Of a DNA stretch of 64,000 nt, positions 143-55,243 are shown piece after piece; position 1 is the stretch's first letter; each line of letters opens with the position of its first letter. Both the position numbers and the translations under genes were made by a program. The notes under the pieces were generated by a model. The model was not told the DNA's origin. It did not search any database and was given only the letters and a program-made list of their open reading frames with translations. Location: assembly GCA_945883815.1 (NCBI GenBank), contig CAMCYJ010000008.1, forward strand, positions 1,285 through 65,284. The letters are read 5' to 3'. Origin of the DNA: Akkermansia muciniphila (GTDB taxonomy: Bacteria > Verrucomicrobiota > Verrucomicrobiia > Limisphaerales > UBA9464).

Positions 143-1348
143 TCAGAGTAAGTGGCCCATCCGGTCTCGTTTGGTTTTCAGGTAGCGCTCATTGTCCGGA
201 TTGGGCGTCACTCGAATGGGGAGTTGCTCGATGATCTCCAACCCATGACCCTGCAAACCCACCACTTTCTTCGGGTTGTTGGTCAGCAGGCGGATCTTTT
301 TCACTCCCAGATCCGACAGCATCTGAGCCCCAATGCCGTAGTCTCTCAGGTCCATCGGAAAGCCCAGTTGCAGATTGGCTTCTACGGTGTCCAAACCCTG
401 CTCTTGCAGCTTGTAGGCTTTGATCTTGGCACCCAGCCCGATGCCTCGCCCCTCTTGCCTCATGTAGAGAATGACCCCTCGACCTTCCTTTTCGATTCGC
501 GCCATGGCCGCGTGCAGCTGGGGGCCGCAGTCGCATCGGCGAGAGCCGAAAACGTCTCCGGTCAGGCATTCGCTGTGCACCCGAACCATGACCCCTTTTT
601 TGCCGGACACTTCACCTTTCACCAGAGCCAGGTGCTCGGATCCATCCACTTTGGAGGAGTACAGGTGCAGCGTGAAATCACCGTAGTCGGTGGGCATACG
701 GATCGATTCGACCCGGTCGATCAGTTTTTCGGAATTCCTTCGAAATTGGATCAGCGACTCGATGGTGCAGATCTTGAGTTTGTGTTTCTTTGCGAAACGC
801 AGCAGCTGTGGCAAACGGGCCATTGACCCGTCATCATTCATGATTTCGCAGATCACGCCTGCAGGGCGCAGGCCTGATAGAGTGGCCAGATCAACGGCCG
901 CCTCGGTATGCCCGGCTCGGCGCAGCACCCCTCCGGCCTTGGATCGCAAGGGGAAGACATGCCCTGGTTGGACAAGATCCGCGGGAGTGGCCGTGGGGTC
1001 CACCATGACTTGAATCGTTCTGGCTCGGTCGGCGGCGCTGATGCCGGTGCTGATGCCTTTGGCGGCATCGACGCTGACCTGGAAGTCGGTCTTATAAGCG
1101 TCACGGTTCTGCACGACCATCTGTTCGATTCCCAACTGTTTGAGCCGCTCACCCACGGTCGGAACGCAAATTAGTCCTCGCCCGTGTTTGGCCATGAAGT
1201 TGATCGCATCCGGGGTCACCTTTTCGGCAGCCAACACCAGATCACCCTCGTTTTCTCGATCCTCGTCATCCACGACAACCACCATTTTCCCTAGGCGAAT
1301 ATCGCCCAGTACGGAGGGTATGTCGTGAAATGGAACGCTCTTCTTCAT
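143..1348 (-). CDS. ribBA: bifunctional 3,4-dihydroxy-2-butanone-4-phosphate synthase / GTP cyclohydrolase II
   Basis: 401-aa ORF. N-terminal DHBP synthase signature [16 protein letters not shown]...[10 protein letters not shown]-terminal GCH-II cysteine motif [23 protein letters not shown]. Confidence 0.93.
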
Positions 1349-1417
1349 GTCAAGCGGTCAGTCGCGGATTGGTGATGGCTCTTTCGGGCAGTGGGCTTGT
1401 GAAGTGTCAGCTCAGAG

Positions 1418-1960
1418 TCACTCCAGCCCCAGCAAGCGGCGTCCTTCGGCGGTGATCATGCTTTGGTGCCAGGGTGGGTCCCAGACGATCTCAACCGATG
1501 CGTCTTCAACACCCGGCAGGGTGAGGATCTTCTGTTGGGCATCACCGGCGATGGTGGCTCCCATGCCACACCCAGGAGCGGTCAGGGTCATCTTCACGAA
1601 GACCTTTTTGGTGCCGCTGGGAAGAAGCTCGATCCCCATGTCGTAGACCAGTCCCAGATCGACGATGTTGACCGGAATCTCGGGGTCGTAACAGCTGCGG
1701 AGGGCTTCCCAGACCGCTTTCTCGTCTGTGTCACCGGTGACGGGTGTGGTCGATGCCGCGGCGGATGGAGTAATTCCCAAGGCGTCCGCATCCTTGGGCC
1801 CGATGCGGAACAGGCCGCCCATGGCATGGACGGTGTAGGACCCACCCAGAGTCTGGGTGATGTCCACCTCGGTTCCGGCCGGAAGGGTGACGACATTGCC
1901 GGCTGGGATTTGGATCGCGTCGCAATCGCGGGAAAGAACGACGGTGCTAACGGAATTCAT
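1418..1960 (-). CDS. long-form SufT-like Fe-S assembly protein (DUF59/MIP18 C-terminal domain)
   Basis: 180-aa ORF. The C-terminal half has the DUF59 pattern (CYDPEIPVNIVDLGLVYD...TLTAPGCGMG). The N-terminal extension is typical of long SufT. Confidence 0.7.
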   Translation of the reverse strand: MNSVSTVVLSRDCDAIQIPAGNVVTLPAGTEVDITQTLGGSYTVHAMGGLFRIGPKDADALGITPSAAASTTPVTGDTDEKAVWEALRSCYDPEIPVNIVDLGLVYDMGIELLPSGTKKVFVKMTLTAPGCGMGATIAGDAQQKILTLPGVEDASVEIVWDPPWHQSMITAEGRRLLGLE

Positions 1961-2024
1961 GGCGGGTGCAAACTAGCGCGGAGTCCGCGAAAGAGAAGTC
2001 AAAGGTCGTTCGGTGGGTGGATCA

Positions 2025-2180
2025 GGGACAGGCTCAATCAGGGGCGGATCAGGGACGGGCTCGTATTTTGCGCCTCTCGGCCGGCGGTAGGCTCATGGTG
2101 CCGGGGGCCGGGGCGTTTTGTTCCTCGGTGGGCAGAAGTCTGTAAGCCTCGGGAATCTGCGGCTTGATTGGGGACAGGCT
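2025..2180 (+). repeat. GGGACAGGCT motif cluster A (3 copies)
   Basis: Copies at 2025-2034, 2052-2061 (GGGACGGGCT, 1 mismatch) and 2171-2180. The first two sit in a 27-bp local duplication (GGATCAGGGACAGGCTC). Confidence 0.85.
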
Positions 2181-2326
2181 CTTGTTTGGATCGAACGCTC
2201 GTAACTACAGGAATGCTCAGGCTTTCGAGATTCATGGCTTCAACTCGGCTTCGACAGACGTTTTGGTTTCCGATGAATTGGATCCGTCGCATCCCGATTC
2301 AAATGCAGGTTCAAGATAGAAAACTT

Positions 2327-2360
2327 TTGACAGATTGGGTCCTGCCGCAGATTAACTAAT
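2327..2360 (+). promoter_or_regulatory. candidate sigma-70-like promoter for the riboswitch leader
   Basis: Perfect TTGACA at 2327-2332, followed 17-19 nt later by the AT-rich stretch GATTAACTAAT (2350-2360). It lies about 25-50 nt upstream of riboswitch helix P1. The -10 hexamer is ambiguous. Confidence 0.3.
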
Positions 2361-2382
2361 CCCGCTGCAGGGAACTGCGGCG

Positions 2383-2500
2383 CTCATCCAGAGTGGCAGA
2401 GGGAACGGCCCGATGAAGCCACGGCAACCGGTGGAGCTGACGTGCTCGACGGCCAGGTGCCAAATCCGGTCGGAACTAAAAAAGTTCCGGCGAAGATGAG
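2383..2500 (+). promoter_or_regulatory. SAM-I (S-box) riboswitch aptamer
   Basis: P1 halves are CTCATC (2383-2388) and GATGAG (2495-2500). The conserved core CAGAGTGGCAGAGGGAACGGCCCGATGAAGCCACGGCAACC and GGTGCCAAATCC matches the remembered S-box consensus (e.g. B. subtilis yitJ leader) almost base for base. Confidence 0.9.
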
Positions 2501-2521
2501 AAGCGTCGGCTCCCTTGGAGA

Positions 2522-2555
2522 CCCCTTCTCGCTTTGCGGAAGGGGATTTTTGTTT
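2522..2555 (+). terminator. intrinsic terminator (expression platform of the SAM-I riboswitch)
   Basis: The 7-bp stem CCCCTTC (2522-2528) / GAAGGGG (2539-2545) has a 10-nt loop and is followed by ATTTTTGTTT. It starts 22 nt after the aptamer. Confidence 0.8.
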
Positions 2556-2635
2556 CCCACCGCATCGGTTTTTCGGATGCGCGTCGTCAGGTCGTCGCGG
2601 CAGTTATTTTTCTTATGAGCCAGAGCAACGGATTC

Positions 2636-3880
2636 ATGAAGGCACTGAAGTGCCGGGAGTGCGGTCGAGAATACCCCTTGGGGGCAACGCATGTTTGCGA
2701 GTTCGATTTTGGACCGCTGGAGGTGGCCTATGACTACGAGCGCATCCGCCAGAGTCTCACCCGAGAGAAGATTTGTTCGCGTCCCCAGAACATGTGGCGA
2801 TACCGGGAACTCCTCCCGATTGCCGGTGAACCGACGGTCGGAGCCAAGGTGGGGTACACCCCATTGATCAAGGCAGATCGCTTGGCCGCCCGGTTGGGGA
2901 TTCGCGAATTGTGGATCAAGAACGACGCGGTCAACTATCCGACACTGTCCTTCAAGGACCGTGTGGTGAGTGTTGCCCTGAGTCGCTCAGTGGAACTCGG
3001 ATTCAAGACTGTCGCCTGCGCGTCCACGGGCAATCTGGCCAATTCGGTGGCGGCCAATGCCGCGGCCGCGGGTCTTCACTGCTATGTCTTCATTCCCTCG
3101 GACTTGGAGCAGGGAAAGGTCGTCAATTCGCTGGTCTACGGAGCCAATGTCGTCGCCATTCGCGGACATTATGACGAGGTGAACCGGTTGTGTGCGGAGA
3201 TCGCCGGCAAGTACGGGTGGGCGTTTGTGAACGTCAATATGAGGCCCTATTACGCTGAAGGTTCCAAGAGCATGGGCTTCGAGATTCAAGAGCAGTTGGG
3301 GTGGCGGATTCCGGAACACACGGTGGTCTGCATGGCTTCGGGTTCTTTGCTGACCAAGATCCACAAGAGCTATCAGGAGTTTTCCAAGCTGGGATTGGTG
3401 CAGAGCCAAGGGTGGAAAATCCACGGAGCGCAGGCCACGGGTTGCTCTCCGATCACGACTGCGCAGAAAGCAGGGTTGGATTTCTTCAAGCCAGTGAAGC
3501 CCAACACCATTGCCAAGTCGTTGGCGATCGGGACTCCGGCTGACGGCTTCTATGCTCTCAAGGTCATGAAAGAGACCGGCGGCCACGGGGACGACGTCTC
3601 GGACGATGAAATCCGCGACGGTATCCGACTGCTTGCTGAAACGGAGGGGATTTTCGCAGAGACGGCCGGCGGCGTGACCGTGGGTGTGGCCAAGAAGCTC
3701 ATCGCTCAAGGCAAAATCCCGGCCGACTCCAGCGCGGTGTTGTGTATCACCGGCAACGGACTCAAGACGTTGGAAGCCATGCTCGGCCACTGTGGTGAGT
3801 CGCGGGTGATCAAGCCCAGCCTTAGGGAGTTTGAGAGCTTGTTGGCCTCGGATCAGGTCGAGGTTGCTGGTTCTCGTTGA
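2636..3880 (+). CDS. threonine-synthase-family PLP enzyme with N-terminal zinc ribbon (ThrC-like; possibly a homocysteine synthase, see findings)
   Basis: The ORF spans 2534..3880. The likely start is ATG 2636 (MKALKCRECGREYP), with 2615 as an alternative. PLP-lysine motif PTLSFKDRV and a Trp-synthase-beta-like fold pattern (ACASTGNLANS, CITGNGLKT) are present. Confidence 0.85.
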   Translation: MKALKCRECGREYPLGATHVCEFDFGPLEVAYDYERIRQSLTREKICSRPQNMWRYRELLPIAGEPTVGAKVGYTPLIKADRLAARLGIRELWIKNDAVNYPTLSFKDRVVSVALSRSVELGFKTVACASTGNLANSVAANAAAAGLHCYVFIPSDLEQGKVVNSLVYGANVVAIRGHYDEVNRLCAEIAGKYGWAFVNVNMRPYYAEGSKSMGFEIQEQLGWRIPEHTVVCMASGSLLTKIHKSYQEFSKLGLVQSQGWKIHGAQATGCSPITTAQKAGLDFFKPVKPNTIAKSLAIGTPADGFYALKVMKETGGHGDDVSDDEIRDGIRLLAETEGIFAETAGGVTVGVAKKLIAQGKIPADSSAVLCITGNGLKTLEAMLGHCGESRVIKPSLREFESLLASDQVEVAGSR

Positions 3881-4202
3881 TCGATTTGGCATGGGGTGTC
3901 TGTGAACATCCACAGGCATGGTTGGCTCTGATTCCGCCCCAACTCCGCCGACATTGTGGTGGGGAACGGGCTGTCGAAGTCGAGCCCGGAGCCCCGAGAG
4001 AGGTGCTCCTGCAATTGCAGGAGCGCTTCGATGGGGTTTATGATCAGCTGCTTAATCCCGATGGAAGGTTCGTGGCGCGGTTCTGATTCTCGTCCACGAC
4101 GAAGTCGTTCGGTTTCAAGACATTCGGTTTCTTCGAGAACTTCAGACTTCGGTACGATCCGGGGATTCGGTGCGTCTGATACCAGACTTTGCGGGCGGTT
4201 GA
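3877..4202 (+). pseudogene. MoaD/ThiS-family sulfur-carrier (beta-grasp, C-terminal GG) gene interrupted by a 1-nt frameshift
   Basis: The N-terminal part is in frame 1 (LIPPQLRRHCGGERAVEVEPGAPREVLLQLQERFDGVYDQLLNPDG) and stops at 4084-4086. The C-terminal part is in frame 0, read by hand from 4065 (KVRGAVLILVHDEVVRFQDIRFLRELQTSVRSGDSVRLIPDFAGG, stop 4200-4202). The TTG start at 3877 overlaps the upstream TGA stop (TTGA); an alternative TTG start is at 3922. Confidence 0.75.
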
Positions 4203-4281
4203 GACAAGCACTCGGATCCCTTTCACATTCACAGATCCCGCTCTGGTTCCGCATGGAATCCACCGAAACCCGCTGCCGGCT

Positions 4282-4872
4282 TTACATGTCCTGAAGATAC
4301 AGTTGGCGGTTCCGCCAAAGGTAGGTGGCACCGCTGTAAAGGGTCAGGGCCACCGCGATCCATTGAGTGGCTTGTGCAAAGGTAACGATCCAGGGTCTGC
4401 CCAGTACAGGCCAAGCAAAGAGGGCTTCGCCGACCGATCCCCACTGCGGGTAGCTCATGGCCAAGAGTGTGGCCAGGATGGTGGTGATTTGGGACACCGT
4501 CTTGTGCTTGCCCAGTCGCTCGGCGGCCAAAACAACATTCTTGGAAGCCGCCAGCAGGCGGAGTCCGGTGATGGCGAGTTCTCGGCCGACTATTACCGCC
4601 ACCATCCATGCTTCGATTTGTCTCAGCTCGATGAAGGCGATGAAGGCGGAACAGGTGAGGATCTTGTCGGCCAAGGGATCCATCAGCGTTCCAAAGGCAG
4701 TAATCAGCTTGCGGTCACGGGCGATCTTTCCATCCAGGAAGTCGGTGAGGCTCGCCAAACTGAAAAGGACCAGTGCCCACGACCGATTTCCCGGAAACGG
4801 CGCGAATGCCGCCACCCAAAACAAGCCCGTCAGCGCGAAACGGGAGACGGTCAATTGGTTGGGGAGATTCAT
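4282..4872 (-). CDS. pgsA: CDP-diacylglycerol--glycerol-3-phosphate 3-phosphatidyltransferase
   Basis: 196 aa. Contains the CDP-alcohol phosphatidyltransferase motif DFLDGKIARDRKLITAFGTLMDPLADK and is multi-pass hydrophobic. Confidence 0.88.
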   Translation of the reverse strand: MNLPNQLTVSRFALTGLFWVAAFAPFPGNRSWALVLFSLASLTDFLDGKIARDRKLITAFGTLMDPLADKILTCSAFIAFIELRQIEAWMVAVIVGRELAITGLRLLAASKNVVLAAERLGKHKTVSQITTILATLLAMSYPQWGSVGEALFAWPVLGRPWIVTFAQATQWIAVALTLYSGATYLWRNRQLYLQDM

Positions 4873-4905
4873 CGGCCGGTTCAGTGTGTCGTGCAGCGGT
4901 GGGAC

Positions 4906-6054
4906 TCAGCGAGTGGTTTTTGATGCCGGCAAGCTGCGGATGGTCTTCAGCAGAGTATCCATTTCCGATTCGGACCCGATCGTGATCCGCAAATAAGATT
5001 CCAGATCGGCAGCGGCGAACCACCGGACTAGGATTTTTTTCTGGCGCAGGTCTTCCAGCCACTGACGCGCCGGTGGACCCGGCGGTCGGGCCAAGATGAA
5101 GTTGGTCTGGGAGGGCAGAACCTGCCAACCCAGGTCGGTCAATGCTTGCGCCATCCGACTCCGGGATTCACACACGCGCCGGAAGTTGCGCTGGTAGTAG
5201 GGTAGGGCTTTGAGTGTGGCAGATGCCGCGATTTGGCCTATACCATTAACGTTATAGCTATCTCGAATCCGGTGCAGCGCAGCGATCAATTCGGGATGGC
5301 CTACCCAGTAGCCGATCCGTTGGAAGCACAACGAATAGGCCTTGGAGAAGGTTCGAGAAATGATCACATGGGGATGCTTGAGGCACAGCTCCATGGCGTT
5401 TTCGTCTGCGAAGTCGACGTAGGCCTCGTCTAGGACCACCACCCCTTTCATAGCGCTGCACAGGGCTTCCAGCTCGTGGGTGGAGTATCCGCGACCACTC
5501 GGTGCATTCGGGGTGGTAACGAAGGTCAGTGCAGCCTGGAAGTCCCAGCGTTTGCCCCGACGCAGTTGGGGAACCGAGGGGATTGCGAAATCGCTCAGCA
5601 ATGGCACGGGATACGGGGTGGCTCCGTGCGTTTCGGCCAGCACGGAGTATAGCGAGTAGCTGGGCCAAAAATATTGGACTCGGCTTTTGGAAGACTCGCT
5701 CGCGGTGGAATCTCTGTTGGTCGCAGGCTCCACGAAGGCTCGGACACCCAGGGCAAGCAATTCGTCCGAGCCGTTTCCAATGATGATCTGATCGGGCGAG
5801 CACTGGTGCAGTGTGGCCAATTGTTCCCGGAGCAATTGAGCCGAGGGGTTGGGGTACAACCTCATGCGGCCATCAATCGCCGCCTTCATTGCCGATAAAA
5901 CCTTCGGTGCCGGCGGGTAGGGATTCTCGTTGGTATTGAGTTTGATCAACCCTTTCACCTTGGGTTGCTCACCCGGCACATAGGCATGCAGTTCGCGGAC
6001 CAAGGGGCGAACCAGCTTGGCTGGTGATCCGTTGCGATAGGAATGTTTCGACAC
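4906..6054 (-). CDS. hisC: histidinol-phosphate aminotransferase
   Basis: 382 aa. Contains NTNENPYPP, GNGSDELL and the PLP-lysine region SRTFSKAYSLCFQRIGY. Confidence 0.9.
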   Translation of the reverse strand: MSKHSYRNGSPAKLVRPLVRELHAYVPGEQPKVKGLIKLNTNENPYPPAPKVLSAMKAAIDGRMRLYPNPSAQLLREQLATLHQCSPDQIIIGNGSDELLALGVRAFVEPATNRDSTASESSKSRVQYFWPSYSLYSVLAETHGATPYPVPLLSDFAIPSVPQLRRGKRWDFQAALTFVTTPNAPSGRGYSTHELEALCSAMKGVVVLDEAYVDFADENAMELCLKHPHVIISRTFSKAYSLCFQRIGYWVGHPELIAALHRIRDSYNVNGIGQIAASATLKALPYYQRNFRRVCESRSRMAQALTDLGWQVLPSQTNFILARPPGPPARQWLEDLRQKKILVRWFAAADLESYLRITIGSESEMDTLLKTIRSLPASKTTR

Positions 6055-6096
6055 AGCGATTTGGACCGGAACAGCTGTGCGGCAGCCACCGGCTTA

Positions 6097-6350
6097 GGGA
6101 CAGGCTCTTAGCATTCGATTCCGTTCCACCAAAGGACAATCTCCGAGGATCCGGCACGACAGGTCAGTTTGGATGGGATTTCATCGACCAAGGGACAGGC
6201 TGCGGCACCGTAGGGACAGGCTGCGGCAACCTCTAATTGCAGAGGGTTATTCGATGTGATGGTCCTGATTCCAAGGAGGTCGAGGATGAGAATGAGTTCA
6301 GGGACAAAGGAACAGAGGGACAGGCTCGAGAGGGGACAGAGGGACAGGCT
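6097..6350 (+). repeat. GGGACAGGCT motif cluster B (5 perfect copies plus degenerate ones)
   Basis: Copies at 6097, 6192, 6213, 6317 and 6341, all in + orientation. The 6192/6213 pair is a 21-bp tandem (AGGGACAGGCTGCGGCA). The 6317/6341 pair is a 24-bp tandem (AGAGGGACAGGCTCGAGAG). Confidence 0.9.
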
Positions 6351-6482
6351 CGAGAGAGGGCACACGAGAGAATACATGGACATGCTCGCGATTTTTCGGA
6401 AGGGAAGGGCCAAGGTCTCGCTTGCCTGAATGGGGGGCAGACGTAGCTTTGCGCTCCCCGCTCTGGCGGGGTTCCTTAATCC

Positions 6483-9350
6483 ATGAGCCTTGCGTCACTG
6501 TTTCAGCATCCCGATTCGTTCGCCCACCGCCATATCGGCCCTCGCCCTGAGGAGTGGGATGTCATGGCTCAGGTCTGCGGACATGCTTCGTTGGATGCAT
6601 TGGTGGCGGCCGCAGTCCCCGCACTGATTCGCCGAAATGATTCGATGAGTCTTCCTCAGTCTTTGGGAGAAACCGCTGCTTTGGGTCGATTGCGTTCTAT
6701 CGCCGCCAAGAACCAAGTCTACAAATCCTACATTGGTCTTGGCTATCACGACACGATCACGCCGCCGGTGATTCAGCGAAACATTCTGGAGAATCCGGGT
6801 TGGTACACGCAGTACACCCCGTATCAGGCGGAGATTTCACAGGGCCGTTTGGAGGGATTGCTGAACTTCCAGACCATGGTGTGCGATCTGACGGGGTTGG
6901 ACATTTCCAACGCTTCCCTTCTGGACGAGGCCACGGCCTGCGCCGAGGCAATGACTCTGTGCCGTCGAGTCAAGGAGGCAGATGCCGATCGCAACACGTT
7001 CTGGATCGCTTCGGACTGCCACCCGCAAAACATCGATCTGGTGCGGACACGGGCTGAGGCGTTGGGTCTGCAGGTCGTGGTGGGCGATTGGAGGCAAGCT
7101 TTGCTCGGGCCAGAGGTTTTCGGTGTCTTGATCCAGTATCCAGGCAGCTCGGGCGAGGTGGGTGATTATTCGCATTTGGTGAAAGCAGCCCATGAGGCCG
7201 GTGCTTTGGTGGTCTTCGCCGCGGATTTGCTGGCGTTGACGCTGTTGAAAACTCCAGGCGAATGGGGCGCAGATGTTGCCGTTGGCAGTGCCCAGCGCTT
7301 TGGTGTCCCGCTGGGTTTTGGAGGTCCGCATGCGGCCTATTTTGCGACTCGGGACGCATTCAAGCGATCCATGCCGGGTCGTTTGGTGGGCGTCTCCAAG
7401 GACTCCCGCGGGCGCCCCGCCTTGCGGTTGTCGCTCGGGACTCGCGAACAACACATCCGACGCGATAAGGCGACCTCAAACATTTGCACGGCCCAGGCGC
7501 TCCTGGCCAACATGGCCATGGCCTTCGCAGCCTACCATGGGCCCGAGGGCCTGACGGCCATCGCCCGACGGGTTCATGGACTGACAGGACTGCTGGCGGC
7601 GGGGCTCCGGCGGTTGGGGTTCCGACTGGCCGCAGACACGTTCTTCGACACGCTGACAGTGCTAGTGCCCGATGCGGCGTCCGTGCACAAGGCCGCCGAG
7701 GCGCTCCATATCAACCTTCGTCGCCTGGATGCGCAGCGTATTGGTATCGCATTGGATGAAACCACCGGCCTGGAGGAGGTGCTGCAAATTCTCAGAGCCT
7801 TTCATGGGGGGCAGTCGTTGCCTTTCGCCCTGGAAGACTTGTCTGCGTGCGCTCCGGTGCTGCCGCAACGTTCCAGCACCTTCCTGACCCATTCGGTCTT
7901 CCAGAAGCACCGCAGCGAGACCGAGATGCTCCGGTATCTCCGGCGCCTGGAATCCAAGGACCTGTCGCTCTGCCACAGCATGATCCCTCTGGGGTCCTGT
8001 ACCATGAAGCTCAACGCATCTGCGGAGATGTTCCCGGTCAGTTGGCCGGAGTTTGGCGCCATTCATCCGTTTGCGCCGTTGTCGCAGACCCGTGGTTACC
8101 AGCAGTTGTTCGAAGAACTGGAAGCGTGGTTGGCTTCGTGCACCGGATTTGCGGGTGTTTCGCTGCAACCGAATTCGGGTTCTCAGGGCGAATACGCGGG
8201 ATTGCTCATCATCCGAGCCTGGCACCGCAGTCGGGGAGAAGGGCACCGGAATGTATGCCTCATTCCCAGCAGCGCCCATGGGACTAATCCCGCTTCGGCG
8301 GTGATGGCGGGAATGACGGTGGTTCCGGTGGCGTGCGATTTGGAGGGCAATATCGACGTCGTGGATATCCGGCAGAAGATCGCAGAACACGGGGCAGCCT
8401 TGGCCGCTCTGATGATCACCTATCCCAGCACCCACGGTGTGTTCGAAGTGGCGGTGAAGGATATCTGCCAGTGGGTCCATGAAGCCGGTGGCCAGGTTTA
8501 CATGGATGGGGCGAACATGAATGCCCAGGTCGGTCTGACCTCTCCAGGAACCCTCGGAGCCGATGTGTGTCACCTGAACCTGCACAAGACCTTCTGCATT
8601 CCGCACGGCGGCGGCGGCCCCGGCGTGGGCCCCGTTTGTGTGGCCGCCCATCTGGTGGATTTCTTGCCGGGTCACGCTGTGGTGAACTTGGGGGGCGAGG
8701 ATCCGATCGGCGCGGTGAGTGCCGCACCCTGGGGCAGTGCTTCGATTTGCGTCATTTCATGGATGTATATCCAGATGATGGGCGCCGTGGGGCTGACTGC
8801 GGCCACCCGGGTGGCCATCCTGAACGCAAATTACATCGCCCAGCGACTGCAGCCCTATTTCCCGACGTTGTACCGTGCCAACGGGTGCGTTGCCCATGAG
8901 TGCATTCTGGATCTTCGCCAGTTCAAAAAAGTGACCGCCGAGGACGTGGCCAAACGATTGATGGACTACGGTCTCCATGCGCCCACCCTGAGTTGGCCGG
9001 TGGCGGGAACGTTGATGGTTGAACCGACCGAGTCGGAGCCTCGGGCCGAGTTGGATCGGTTCTGCGAGGCCATGATTGAGATCCATGGCGAAATCCTGGA
9101 GGTGGAATCGGGGCAGGTGGACGCCAAGAACAATCTACTCAAGAATGCTCCTCATACTGCGGATCAGATCGCAGGAGAGGTCTGGGATCGTCCCTATACC
9201 CGCGAGCGGGCGGCGTTCCCGGTAGCGGGTCTGAAGGATTTCAAGTTCTGGCCCGCATCGGGTCGGGTCGACAATGTGTTCGGCGATCGAAATCTGGTTT
9301 GCTCCTGCGTCGGGATGGAGGCCTACGGTACTCCGGTCTCGGAGCGGTGA
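6483..9350 (+). CDS. gcvP: glycine dehydrogenase (decarboxylating), single-chain P protein
   Basis: 955 aa with full-length GcvP similarity, including the PLP site [18 protein letters not shown]. Confidence 0.95.
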
Positions 9351-9683: not shown

Positions 9684-9758
9684 TGGTGCGCGATACAGGG
9701 TTCGAACCTGTGACCCCTACCGTGTCAAGGTAATGCTCTACCACTGAGCTAACCGCGC
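9684..9758 (-). tRNA. tRNA-Val (anticodon GAC), CCA encoded
   Basis: Cloverleaf folded by hand. Acceptor stem is GCGCGGT/ATCGCGC. D arm is GCTC-AGTGGTA-GAGC. Anticodon arm is TTACC-TTGACAC-GGTAG. T arm is ACAGG-TTCGAAC-CCTGT, followed by discriminator A and CCA. Confidence 0.9.
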
Positions 9759-52077: not shown

Positions 52078-53583
<1,506 letters not shown>

Positions 53584-53713
53584 GGTCAGAAAAGCTGGCG
53601 GATGAAACACGGTCCTTGCCCGGCGGGCGACGGAAATCTCAGGGCCTTTCCGGACAGGCTCCCGCTCGACTGAACTTGGGCCTACGCCGGCCCGTGTGCA
53701 GGTTGTGTGCAGC

Positions 53714-55243
53714 TCAGAGGCCGCATTTTCGAAGCATGGCCTGAATGGCTTCTGGGCTGGACTCCAAATGGGCGGCTCCGGCCAGTAGGTCTGCGGCTTC
53801 CACCCCATACCAATGGCGTTTTTTTGGGTCGCACAGGCCAGCAATGTTGATGGGTGCCACCGTGTCAGACACTCGGGCGATCCAGTCGGTGGTGGGTTGT
53901 CGGCCGGCATCAGCAAGGAGGGACCGGAAGGCGGGGCCCATTCGTGGATGCCCACGCAGCAGAAATCCCGGGGCCAGATGGGGCTTTCCCAACCGGAGTG
54001 CCGTTTCGGAGAAGCTGGCGCTGGCGAAGTACAGCATGGTGAGTGCTTTGAATGCGTCGGGCTTGCCGAGCACTCGATAGGCTCCGCCGATCAGCCGAGC
54101 GGTGGCGTCGAGGTCGGCCAGTGTGTCGGCCTCATAGGCCGCAAGCGCACCCTCCGGGCAGCCGGCCTCCAGCGCCCGGGCCAGTCGATCGATCCCCAAG
54201 AGCGACAGCACAAATCCGGTGGAAAAGAGTGGGTCCACGAACCCGGCTGCCATGGGTAATTGTGCCCATCGATGCCCCACGCAGCGAGCGGTGCGGAACG
54301 CCAGGGGTTCGGTGACTGTCCAGGGCCGGATGAGTTGGGCTTCGGCGAATTGCCTCCCAATCGAGGGGAATCGCTTGAGAAACGCGTTCCAGGCTTTGGC
54401 TGGGTCGGCGGCCAAGTCGTTGGAGCGCTCGGTGGCTGAGTCAACCGCTTCGGCAAAACCAGCGCTGGTGATGCCGTTGTTGAAGCGCAGCACCCACATC
54501 CAGCCCCCCTCGAAGGTGTGGTGCAGGGCGGCATCGTCCGGAGGGAAGGGGGCCTCGGCGAACACTGGGTTGTTTTGTGACCAGGAGCCGACTCCGGTGA
54601 AATGCGAAAACAGGCCCCGTGTTCGTGGGAAGTCCTCGTACTGAGCCTCCGGTAGACCGAGGGTTTGATGCAGGTAGCCCCGGGGGCCGCTGGCATCGAC
54701 CAGAAAGCCGGCATGGGCCCGGAAGCTTTGCCCCCGGCATTTTCCCTCCAAGTGCACTCCGTCGGTTACCAGGTCGCAGGCAGTGAGCGTGGTTTCATCG
54801 CGGTACTCCACACCCAGCCGAACCATTTCCTCGACCAGAAAGGCATCGAAGTCGGGGCGATACCAGTGGGTGTCGGCCACGAAGTCGTTGGGGCTGGCCG
54901 CCACCAGGAGTTGATCGGAACGGTCGTCACGGCCTTGCCAGGGTTTCCCGGGTTCGTGATGGAAGTAGCTGAATCCGCGCTTGAGACCGCAACCCATGTG
55001 CGGGTAGCTGGCCTGCCAGGTGCCCCACTGGGATAGCGGGCGCAAGCGGGGCAGGTCATAGCGGTCAGCCAGGATCTCCAGCCAAAGGTTGGCCAAGGGT
55101 GTGGACGATTCGCCAATGGCGAAGCGCGGATGCCGTCCGCGTTCGATCATCAGCACTGAGCGACCGAGGCGTCGGGCGATCATGGCCAGAAGCGTTCCGG
55201 CAAACCCGGAACCGACGATGGCGAGGTCGAAGTCGGCGGACAC
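53714..55243 (-). CDS. FAD-dependent oxidoreductase, flavin-dependent halogenase-like
   Basis: 509 aa. Contains GSGFAG dinucleotide motif, AIGESSTPL and a GGWMWVL (WxWxI-like) motif. Confidence 0.6.

Follow-up and report, generated by a model that had tools for sequence, protein, structure and literature searches.

We have analysed by computational means a short locus in a 64,000-nt stretch of DNA, hereafter the window, which comprises positions 1,285 to 65,284 (forward strand) of contig CAMCYJ010000008.1 in an assembly deposited as Akkermansia muciniphila (GCA_945883815.1). A SAM-I (S-box) riboswitch, responsive to S-adenosylmethionine (SAM), lies there upstream of a gene of the threonine synthase (ThrC) family, and behind this gene stands the remnant of a small sulfur carrier gene of the ThiS/MoaD family. 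We propose that the locus belongs to the methionine pathway, as an operon of the MetM/MetO type known from Streptomyces albulus, in which the SAM-repressed 'thrC' would probably be a homocysteine synthase and the carrier gene has decayed. The features are collected in Table 1.

A SAM-I riboswitch, a ThrC-family gene and a carrier remnant

The initial annotation of the stretch had seen a near-consensus S-box aptamer and a strong terminator, and both were borne out. The Rfam SAM-I model RF00162 matched over its full length (model positions 1-108 of 108; 76.1 bits, with a gathering score of 44.4; E 4.4e-16), as the sole riboswitch found by Rfam in the window, and a terminator scan returned a hairpin that begins twenty bases 3' of the aptamer, with a stem of eight pairs, five of them G-C, and the tail ATTTTTGTTT. 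In the minimum free energy (MFE) fold of 2490-2570 alone, GCGAAGAUGAGAAG pairs with CUUCUCGCUUUGC (-31.5 kcal/mol), which sets the P1 3' strand (2490-2503) against the 5' arm and loop of the terminator (2526-2537) as a competing antiterminator. The expression platform has mutually exclusive terminator and antiterminator structures involving the P1 3' strand, and the leader is of the classic S-box OFF design, with a predicted response to SAM in which the stabilised P1 frees the terminator. In our model a promoter near 2327 would drive this leader; with SAM bound, P1 and then the terminator would form and transcription would end ahead of the coding region, and at low SAM the P1 3' strand would pair with the terminator 5' arm and permit read-through.

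Upstream of the aptamer, TTGAC(A) is found behind an A-rich tract, 52-56 nt 5' of the aptamer, in 76 of 77 related leaders. In the window, tract and TTGACA lie within 2310-2355, and the spacing to the aptamer is constant across leaders. The candidate -10 box, GATTAA at 2350-2355, is weak; this region is poorly conserved, GATTAA being typical of the window's subclade (the window and its seven closest relatives, with enzymes at least 91% identical), and a sigma-70 consensus scan returned no full promoter. Next to the aptamer and outside the RF00162 model, the hairpin that we call P0 (dG -14.1 in the window) has a counterpart at the same position in 77 of 78 related leaders; the structure is kept and the stem sequence varies, 35 versions having been counted. 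A hairpin with a T-run separates aptamer and start codon in 76 of 79 related leaders.

As to the gene downstream, the initial annotation was right about the family, although its figures of 415 aa and about 80 nt of spacing have to be replaced. The start is ATG 2615, 60 nt past the T-run, the N-terminus MSQSNGFMKALKCRECG is kept in relatives, and the product has 421 aa. It is a fold-type II pyridoxal phosphate (PLP) enzyme (PF00291, 226 bits) whose catalytic lysine, K114 in an SFKDR motif, aligns with K61 of Thermus thermophilus ThrC; its best-matching model, NF006050, scores 283.9 bits, under the cut-off of 303, and cysM models give 38 bits with cut-offs near 400. The closest matches among solved structures are true threonine synthases (2ZSJ, 1UIM, 6CGQ and 2D1F; 154-185 bits), which align only from about residue 60 and lack the N-terminal Cys-rich extension (CxxC...C). 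In a plasmid collection, thrC-annotated genes of haloarchaeal megaplasmids share this extension at about 35% identity, so that it is not specific to the riboswitch-linked clade. With dN/dS values of 0.018-0.031, the enzyme is under strong purifying selection, and the riboswitch too is kept under strong selection.

A beta-grasp carrier gene starting at a TTGA overlap with the enzyme stop and ending in IPDFAGG had also been claimed, and with it a functional gene pair; neither survives frame analysis. TTG 3877, which overlaps the enzyme stop, opens a 69-aa open reading frame (ORF) that ends at 4084-4086. The IPDFAGG tail (4179-4202, stop codon 4200-4202), in which Gly-Gly directly precedes the stop, lies in the -1 frame relative to it, and no ORF of at least 20 aa ends at the stop 4200-4202. 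In L002-L004, our alignment references (enzyme 97% identical to that of the window, carrier intact), the carrier is a 90-aa protein, MVEVLIPPQLRR...IPAFAGG, with its ATG 41-42 nt past the enzyme stop, and by this alignment the true start of the remnant is ATG 3918. Three lesions follow: 2 nt are deleted directly behind ATG GTT G (after 3924), 1 nt is deleted after 4064, and 4102-4116 is a 15-nt imperfect tandem duplication. The deletions total 3 nt, and ATG 3918 and the Gly-Gly tail therefore share a frame, but the 47 codons between the two deletions are out of frame and translation from ATG 3918 halts at 4041-4043.

Relatives in Verrucomicrobiota and actinomycetes

A scan of species-representative genomes yielded 80 related loci (L001-L080), all in Verrucomicrobiota of the Limisphaerales/Pedosphaera type, with enzymes 79-97% identical to that of the window. 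Many of the contigs with this operon (enzyme identity 80-97%) bear names such as Akkermansia muciniphila, Bifidobacterium, Klebsiella, Chitinophaga, Kapaibacterium or Cyanophyceae; evidently, they come from metagenome-assembled genomes that were wrongly labelled or binned.

RF00162 was found directly 5' of the enzyme gene in all 14 loci tested with Rfam (72-84 bits), six of which have no carrier, and a profile built from these 14 hits extended the riboswitch to 78 of the 80 loci. One of the two misses offers just 129 nt of sequence on the upstream side, and in the other, L069, the element is truly missing. In a strict census, which required an intact GG-terminal PF02597 gene, 69 of the 80 loci carry a ThiS/MoaD-type carrier 3' of the enzyme gene. 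Two paralogues could be told apart, carA (...IPAFAGG, with a conserved Cys in LRxLCGGE) and carB (...IPAIAGG): 43 loci have carB only, 15 carA only and 11 both, while six have no carrier and five have fragments or pseudogenes. The eleven with carA and carB in tandem are L020 (7286-8260), L008, L010, L013, L014, L017, L018, L021, L022, L028 and L057. A stand-alone NIL-domain gene (PF09383, 47 bits) follows carB in 52 of 54 loci; elsewhere, such domains are associated with MetN and with the DUF39 route to homocysteine.

Every carrier ends at Gly-Gly save a carB copy in L073 (6543-6818), which ends AIAGGR, one residue further on, and so would need C-terminal trimming. At L048 (8543-11937), a 107-nt repeat occurs in four direct copies (87-100% identical), which span 16 nt upstream of carB and about its first 30 codons, with small cassette-like genes between the copies, including a nucleotidyltransferase/HEPN-like pair; similar fragments occur in L050, L034 and L076. 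The array suggests a hotspot for insertions where the carrier gene begins.

Within the window's subclade, an intact carrier is kept only in the L002-L004 lineage. The carrier of L005 has lost its start (ATG to ACG) and bears a stop and indels, and that of L007 has an in-frame stop, in both cases lesions that differ from those of the window, while L001 and L006 retain no trace of the gene. Judged from these sequences, several independent events have deleted or disrupted the carrier, which is affected in at least five of the eight closest genomes. The gene order from 143 to 9350 is common to the window and L002-L006. Elsewhere in the window, a carbamoyl-phosphate synthase large-chain homologue (52078-53955, minus strand) has just 624 aa with domains D1-D3, and is either a split carB, in the sense of that enzyme's own gene name, or a truncated gene.

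Table 1. Features of the locus and of its flanks in the window
Feature	Position	Strand	Basis or remark
Promoter-like -35 box TTGACA	2327..2332	+	TTGAC(A) in related leaders, fixed spacing
Leader hairpin P0, 8 bp, GGAA loop	2363..2382	+	directly adjoins P1 5' strand
SAM-I (S-box) riboswitch aptamer	2381..2502	+	RF00162 match
Antiterminator, P1 3' strand with terminator 5' arm	2490..2537	+	MFE fold
Intrinsic terminator, stem-loop 2522-2545 and T-run 2546-2555	2522..2555	+	terminator scan
ThrC-family PLP enzyme with N-terminal Cys-rich zinc-ribbon-like extension; putative MetM-type homocysteine synthase, 421 aa	2615..3880	+	
Pseudogene, carA-type ThiS/MoaD-family sulfur carrier	3918..4202	+	frame analysis, alignment to intact L002-L004
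ribBA	143..1348	-	shared synteny
FeS_assembly_P protein	1418..1960	-	shared synteny
CDP-alcohol phosphatidyltransferase	4282..4872	-	shared synteny
Class I/II aminotransferase	4906..6054	-	shared synteny
gcvP	6483..9350	+	shared synteny
tRNA	9687..9758	-	

Beyond Verrucomicrobiota, an exhaustive search of 50%-identity representatives gave homologues over the full length with 50-58% identity, among them one from Micromonosporaceae. Two cultured actinomycetes supplied genomic context. In Actinoplanes derwentensis, RF00162 (72.7 bits) directly precedes a 56%-identical enzyme gene with no adjoining carrier. Nonomuraea gerenzanensis has RF00162 (68.7 bits), a 53.6%-identical enzyme and, after a gap of 25 nt, a 91-aa carrier ending IIPAVAGG; on the same replicon, 9.3 Mb off, it encodes a canonical ThrC that is 65% identical to that of Mycobacterium tuberculosis, and since one organism holds both forms, the riboswitch-linked enzyme and canonical ThrC are paralogues. 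The Nonomuraea carrier is nearer to carB (49% identity, 93 bits) than to carA (39-40%), which makes carB the likely MetO-type orthologue and carA, the type found in the window, a clade-specific paralogue. When the window enzyme, the Micromonosporaceae protein (P0123) and the Nonomuraea enzyme were used as queries, the best 120 matches of each came only from Verrucomicrobiota, Micromonosporaceae and Streptosporangiales, and the plasmid collection held no Streptomyces homologue.

The window enzyme shares 52-55% identity with the actinomycete riboswitch-linked homologues, compared with 34-38% with validated ThrCs. In a neighbour-joining tree of 42 sequences (200 bootstraps), the validated ThrCs (2ZSJ, 1UIM, 6CGQ and 2D1F) together with the canonical ThrC of Nonomuraea split from all other sequences in 200/200 replicates, and the Verrucomicrobial enzymes form a clade (200/200) beside the actinomycete riboswitch-linked proteins. 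At 24 alignment positions, the riboswitch-linked and ThrC groups are each invariant and differ from one another. Among the residues of T. thermophilus ThrC that we take to bind the substrate phosphate (T88, N154, S155, R160 and N188), T88 is replaced by L141 in the window, S155 by V207, R160 by Y213 and N188 by S242, all four being among the 24 positions, and all 14 riboswitch-linked sequences are alike in this; K61 and N154 (N206 in the window) are kept. ThrC retains the phosphate of its substrate as a base that directs water to C-beta. The replacements fit an enzyme that would release phosphate and accept another nucleophile at C-gamma.

Assignment of the enzyme and fate of the carrier

What, then, does the riboswitch-linked enzyme make? 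The initial annotation had regarded this 'thrC' as a misannotated homocysteine synthase, dependent on a sulfur carrier and controlled by SAM, and the riboswitch at 78 of 80 loci and in actinomycetes, the adjoining carrier at 69 of 80 loci, the separate clade and the coexistence with canonical ThrC in Nonomuraea support that view. From sequence and context we infer a substrate, a product and a sulfur donor: the enzyme would take O-phosphohomoserine, eliminate phosphate and add sulfur at the gamma carbon, which would yield homocysteine. The precedent that the initial annotation had named from Streptomyces, a ThrC homologue paired with a carrier, is a real one. According to Hasebe 2024 as summarised in Appendix 4 of 10.1101/2024.10.14.618325, S. 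albulus converts O-phosphohomoserine to homocysteine via a thiocarboxylate, with MetO as carrier, Mec as hydrolase, MoeZ as ligase and MetM as synthase, and MetM is described there as 'often misannotated' as threonine synthase. MetM is reported to take its sulfur from a thiocarboxylate at the C-terminus of MetO, which is a small protein. A SAM riboswitch lies upstream of S. albulus metM, and homologues are reported from cyanobacteria (PMC12172450).

Several points weigh against assigning the enzyme to the MetM type. The thrC equivalog TIGR00260 scores 273 bits, over its cut-off of 167, and the database names for the clade are all threonine synthase among the matches listed. A Microcystis homologue of the clade is reported to have acted in vitro as threonine synthase and deaminase, whereas MetM activity was not clear (PMC12172450), which is the main experimental caveat. 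The assignment to MetM is made through context, clade and actinomycete proxies and not through the S. albulus MetM sequence itself, the roles given to the substituted active-site residues are presumed ones, and the searches for helper genes, a second thrC, a carrier acting in trans and a conventional route covered only 64 kb of the genome.

These scores, names and activities fit a rival view, in which the gene encodes a true threonine synthase whose control by SAM would keep the two branches from O-phosphohomoserine, to threonine and to methionine, in balance, and in which the carrier is incidental; that the enzyme persists where an adjoining carrier is missing, in the window's subclade and in Actinoplanes, points the same way. 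Nevertheless, we consider this explanation unlikely. The enzyme stands apart from all validated ThrCs in every bootstrap replicate, every member of the clade has replacements at four of the five putative phosphate-site residues, Nonomuraea keeps a canonical ThrC as well, and a carrier adjoins the enzyme there and at 69 of the 80 Verrucomicrobial loci. An OFF switch would moreover cut threonine synthesis at high SAM, the opposite of the logic of plants, in which SAM activates ThrC.

Within the MetM/MetO-type reading, the state of the carrier in the window has to be accounted for. One explanation would be that the carrier is really intact and forms a working pair with the enzyme, its frameshifts being either errors of sequencing or assembly or else overcome by programmed frameshifting: the deletions add up to one codon, with start and tail in one frame, and the remnant retains 75% identity to intact carA. 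This we regard as very improbable. Repaired by hand, the remnant reaches only 17.7 bits with PF02597, under the threshold of 22.5, whereas intact orthologues reach 47.1 and 67.7; beside the three separate indels, it has substitutions at sites where carA is conserved to at least 90% (RGSVL to RGAVL, VNDE to VHDE and PAFAGG to PDFAGG); and its dN/dS against L002-L004 is 0.26-0.29, 5-6-fold higher than the 0.05 found between intact carriers. Sequencing error, which does not produce such substitutions or a raised dN/dS, was rejected on these grounds and on the parallel decay in relatives, and the other long genes of the window (ORFs of 955, 1178 and 1549 aa) are uninterrupted. Programmed -1 frameshifting was rejected too, as the overlap at 4056-4086 holds no slippery heptamer, the ATG frame runs into a stop, and relatives have different, independent lesions or a deletion, so that the frameshift sites are not conserved. 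Taken together, the frame lesions, the sub-threshold domain score, the substitutions, the raised dN/dS and the intact neighbours indicate genuine decay of the carrier gene.

Also very improbable, to our mind, is a different SAM-regulated replacement reaction, with another phospho-amino acid or nucleophile, for although cysteate synthase is a ThrC homologue with the same N-terminal Cys-rich extension and its model TIGR03844 gives a weak match, and although the function of the Verrucomicrobial members is a prediction from sequence, that match is far under cut-off (63 bits against 325), and the SAM-I regulon is centred on methionine and SAM. The actinomycete layout of riboswitch, enzyme and carrier also matches the published MetM/MetO arrangement (PMC12172450).

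How would a MetM-type enzyme work beside a broken carrier? We propose that the ancestral Verrucomicrobial operon had one or two carriers, the MetO-like carB and/or its paralogue carA, and often the NIL-domain protein, and that the lineage of the window retained carA alone, which has since decayed in this genome. With carA a pseudogene and the enzyme under selection, sulfur would have to come from free sulfide or from a carrier whose gene lies outside the locus. No second carrier or NIL gene was found in the 64-kb window, Pfam scans of 40 window ORFs found no E1/ThiF, JAMM, rhodanese, metX/Y, thrB, hom or canonical thrC, and in a tblastn search with M. tuberculosis ThrC across the window only the riboswitch-linked gene matched. 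A bolder version, which we put forward tentatively and hold to be rather doubtful, is that the MetM-type enzyme has been freed of its co-encoded carrier and uses free sulfide or a borrowed general carrier, and that it derives from a four-part module of enzyme, two carrier paralogues and the stand-alone NIL protein, the last as an unrecognised component of the pathway. Such independence would explain the repeated loss of carA beside a tightly selected enzyme and riboswitch.

The novelty claimed in the initial annotation has to be narrowed. The riboswitch-metM-metO arrangement is already published, and GapMind already includes the MetM/MetO pathway (10.1101/2024.10.14.618325), but its occurrence in Verrucomicrobiota appears undescribed: our literature search found no description of the riboswitch-enzyme-carrier operon for Verrucomicrobia. 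The gain is thus one of distribution, annotation and evolutionary detail, and not of mechanism. Under threonine synthase labels, methionine biosynthesis would be misread in Verrucomicrobiota and in many other phyla, with false auxotrophies as a possible result, and the conserved SAM riboswitch could serve as an easy genomic marker by which to tell MetM-type enzymes and true ThrC apart. That the carrier has been lost more than once beside a conserved enzyme bears on how strictly this enzyme family needs a protein thiocarboxylate, and the tight linkage of carB and the NIL gene suggests a possible additional component of the pathway.

Comparison with known systems

Among the systems with which the locus can be compared is the DUF39 pathway with its NIL/ferredoxin protein in methanogens and Desulfovibrio (PMC5764234). 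There too homocysteine synthesis has a genetic link to a NIL domain, and in relatives of the window a stand-alone NIL protein is encoded right behind carB. However, the DUF39 pathway starts from aspartate semialdehyde, and the locus in the window has no DUF39, ferredoxin domain or NIL gene. In the HcyS/MetY system of Wolinella succinogenes (Krishnamoorthy and Begley 2011, cited in PMC5764234), a protein thiocarboxylate likewise supplies the sulfur of homocysteine, but MetY is a fold-type I O-acetylhomoserine sulfhydrylase acting on O-acetylhomoserine, and the route includes a JAMM protease step. In CysM/CysO of M. tuberculosis, too, the PLP enzyme is of fold-type II and works with a phosphorylated amino acid and the thiocarboxylate of a carrier protein, Rv1336 being the [CysO]-thiocarboxylate-dependent cysteine synthase (PMC12910592); CysM, in contrast, makes cysteine from O-phosphoserine and belongs to the CysK/CysM family and not to that of ThrC.

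With canonical ThrC (1UIM, 2ZSJ, 6CGQ and 2D1F), the enzyme of the window shares the fold, the PLP-lysine motif, the modest identity given above and probably the substrate, O-phosphohomoserine. ThrC differs in lacking the N-terminal Cys-rich domain, in forming a separate clade and in possessing the putative phosphate-site residues T88, S155, R160 and N188. Its regulation differs too: a riboswitch survey gives only T-box elements for thrC in Bacillota (PMC12452182).

The closest likeness is to MetM/MetO. In both cases a PLP enzyme homologous to ThrC stands behind a SAM riboswitch and is routinely misannotated as threonine synthase, and in most relatives of the window a GG-terminal carrier of the ThiS/MoaD type adjoins the enzyme gene. 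The Verrucomicrobial clade has features of its own: it has two carrier paralogues, carA with its conserved Cys and the MetO-like carB, and usually a NIL gene; in the window itself the carrier is a pseudogene; and the carriers of the clade end exactly at Gly-Gly, which implies that they would not require trimming of the Mec type.

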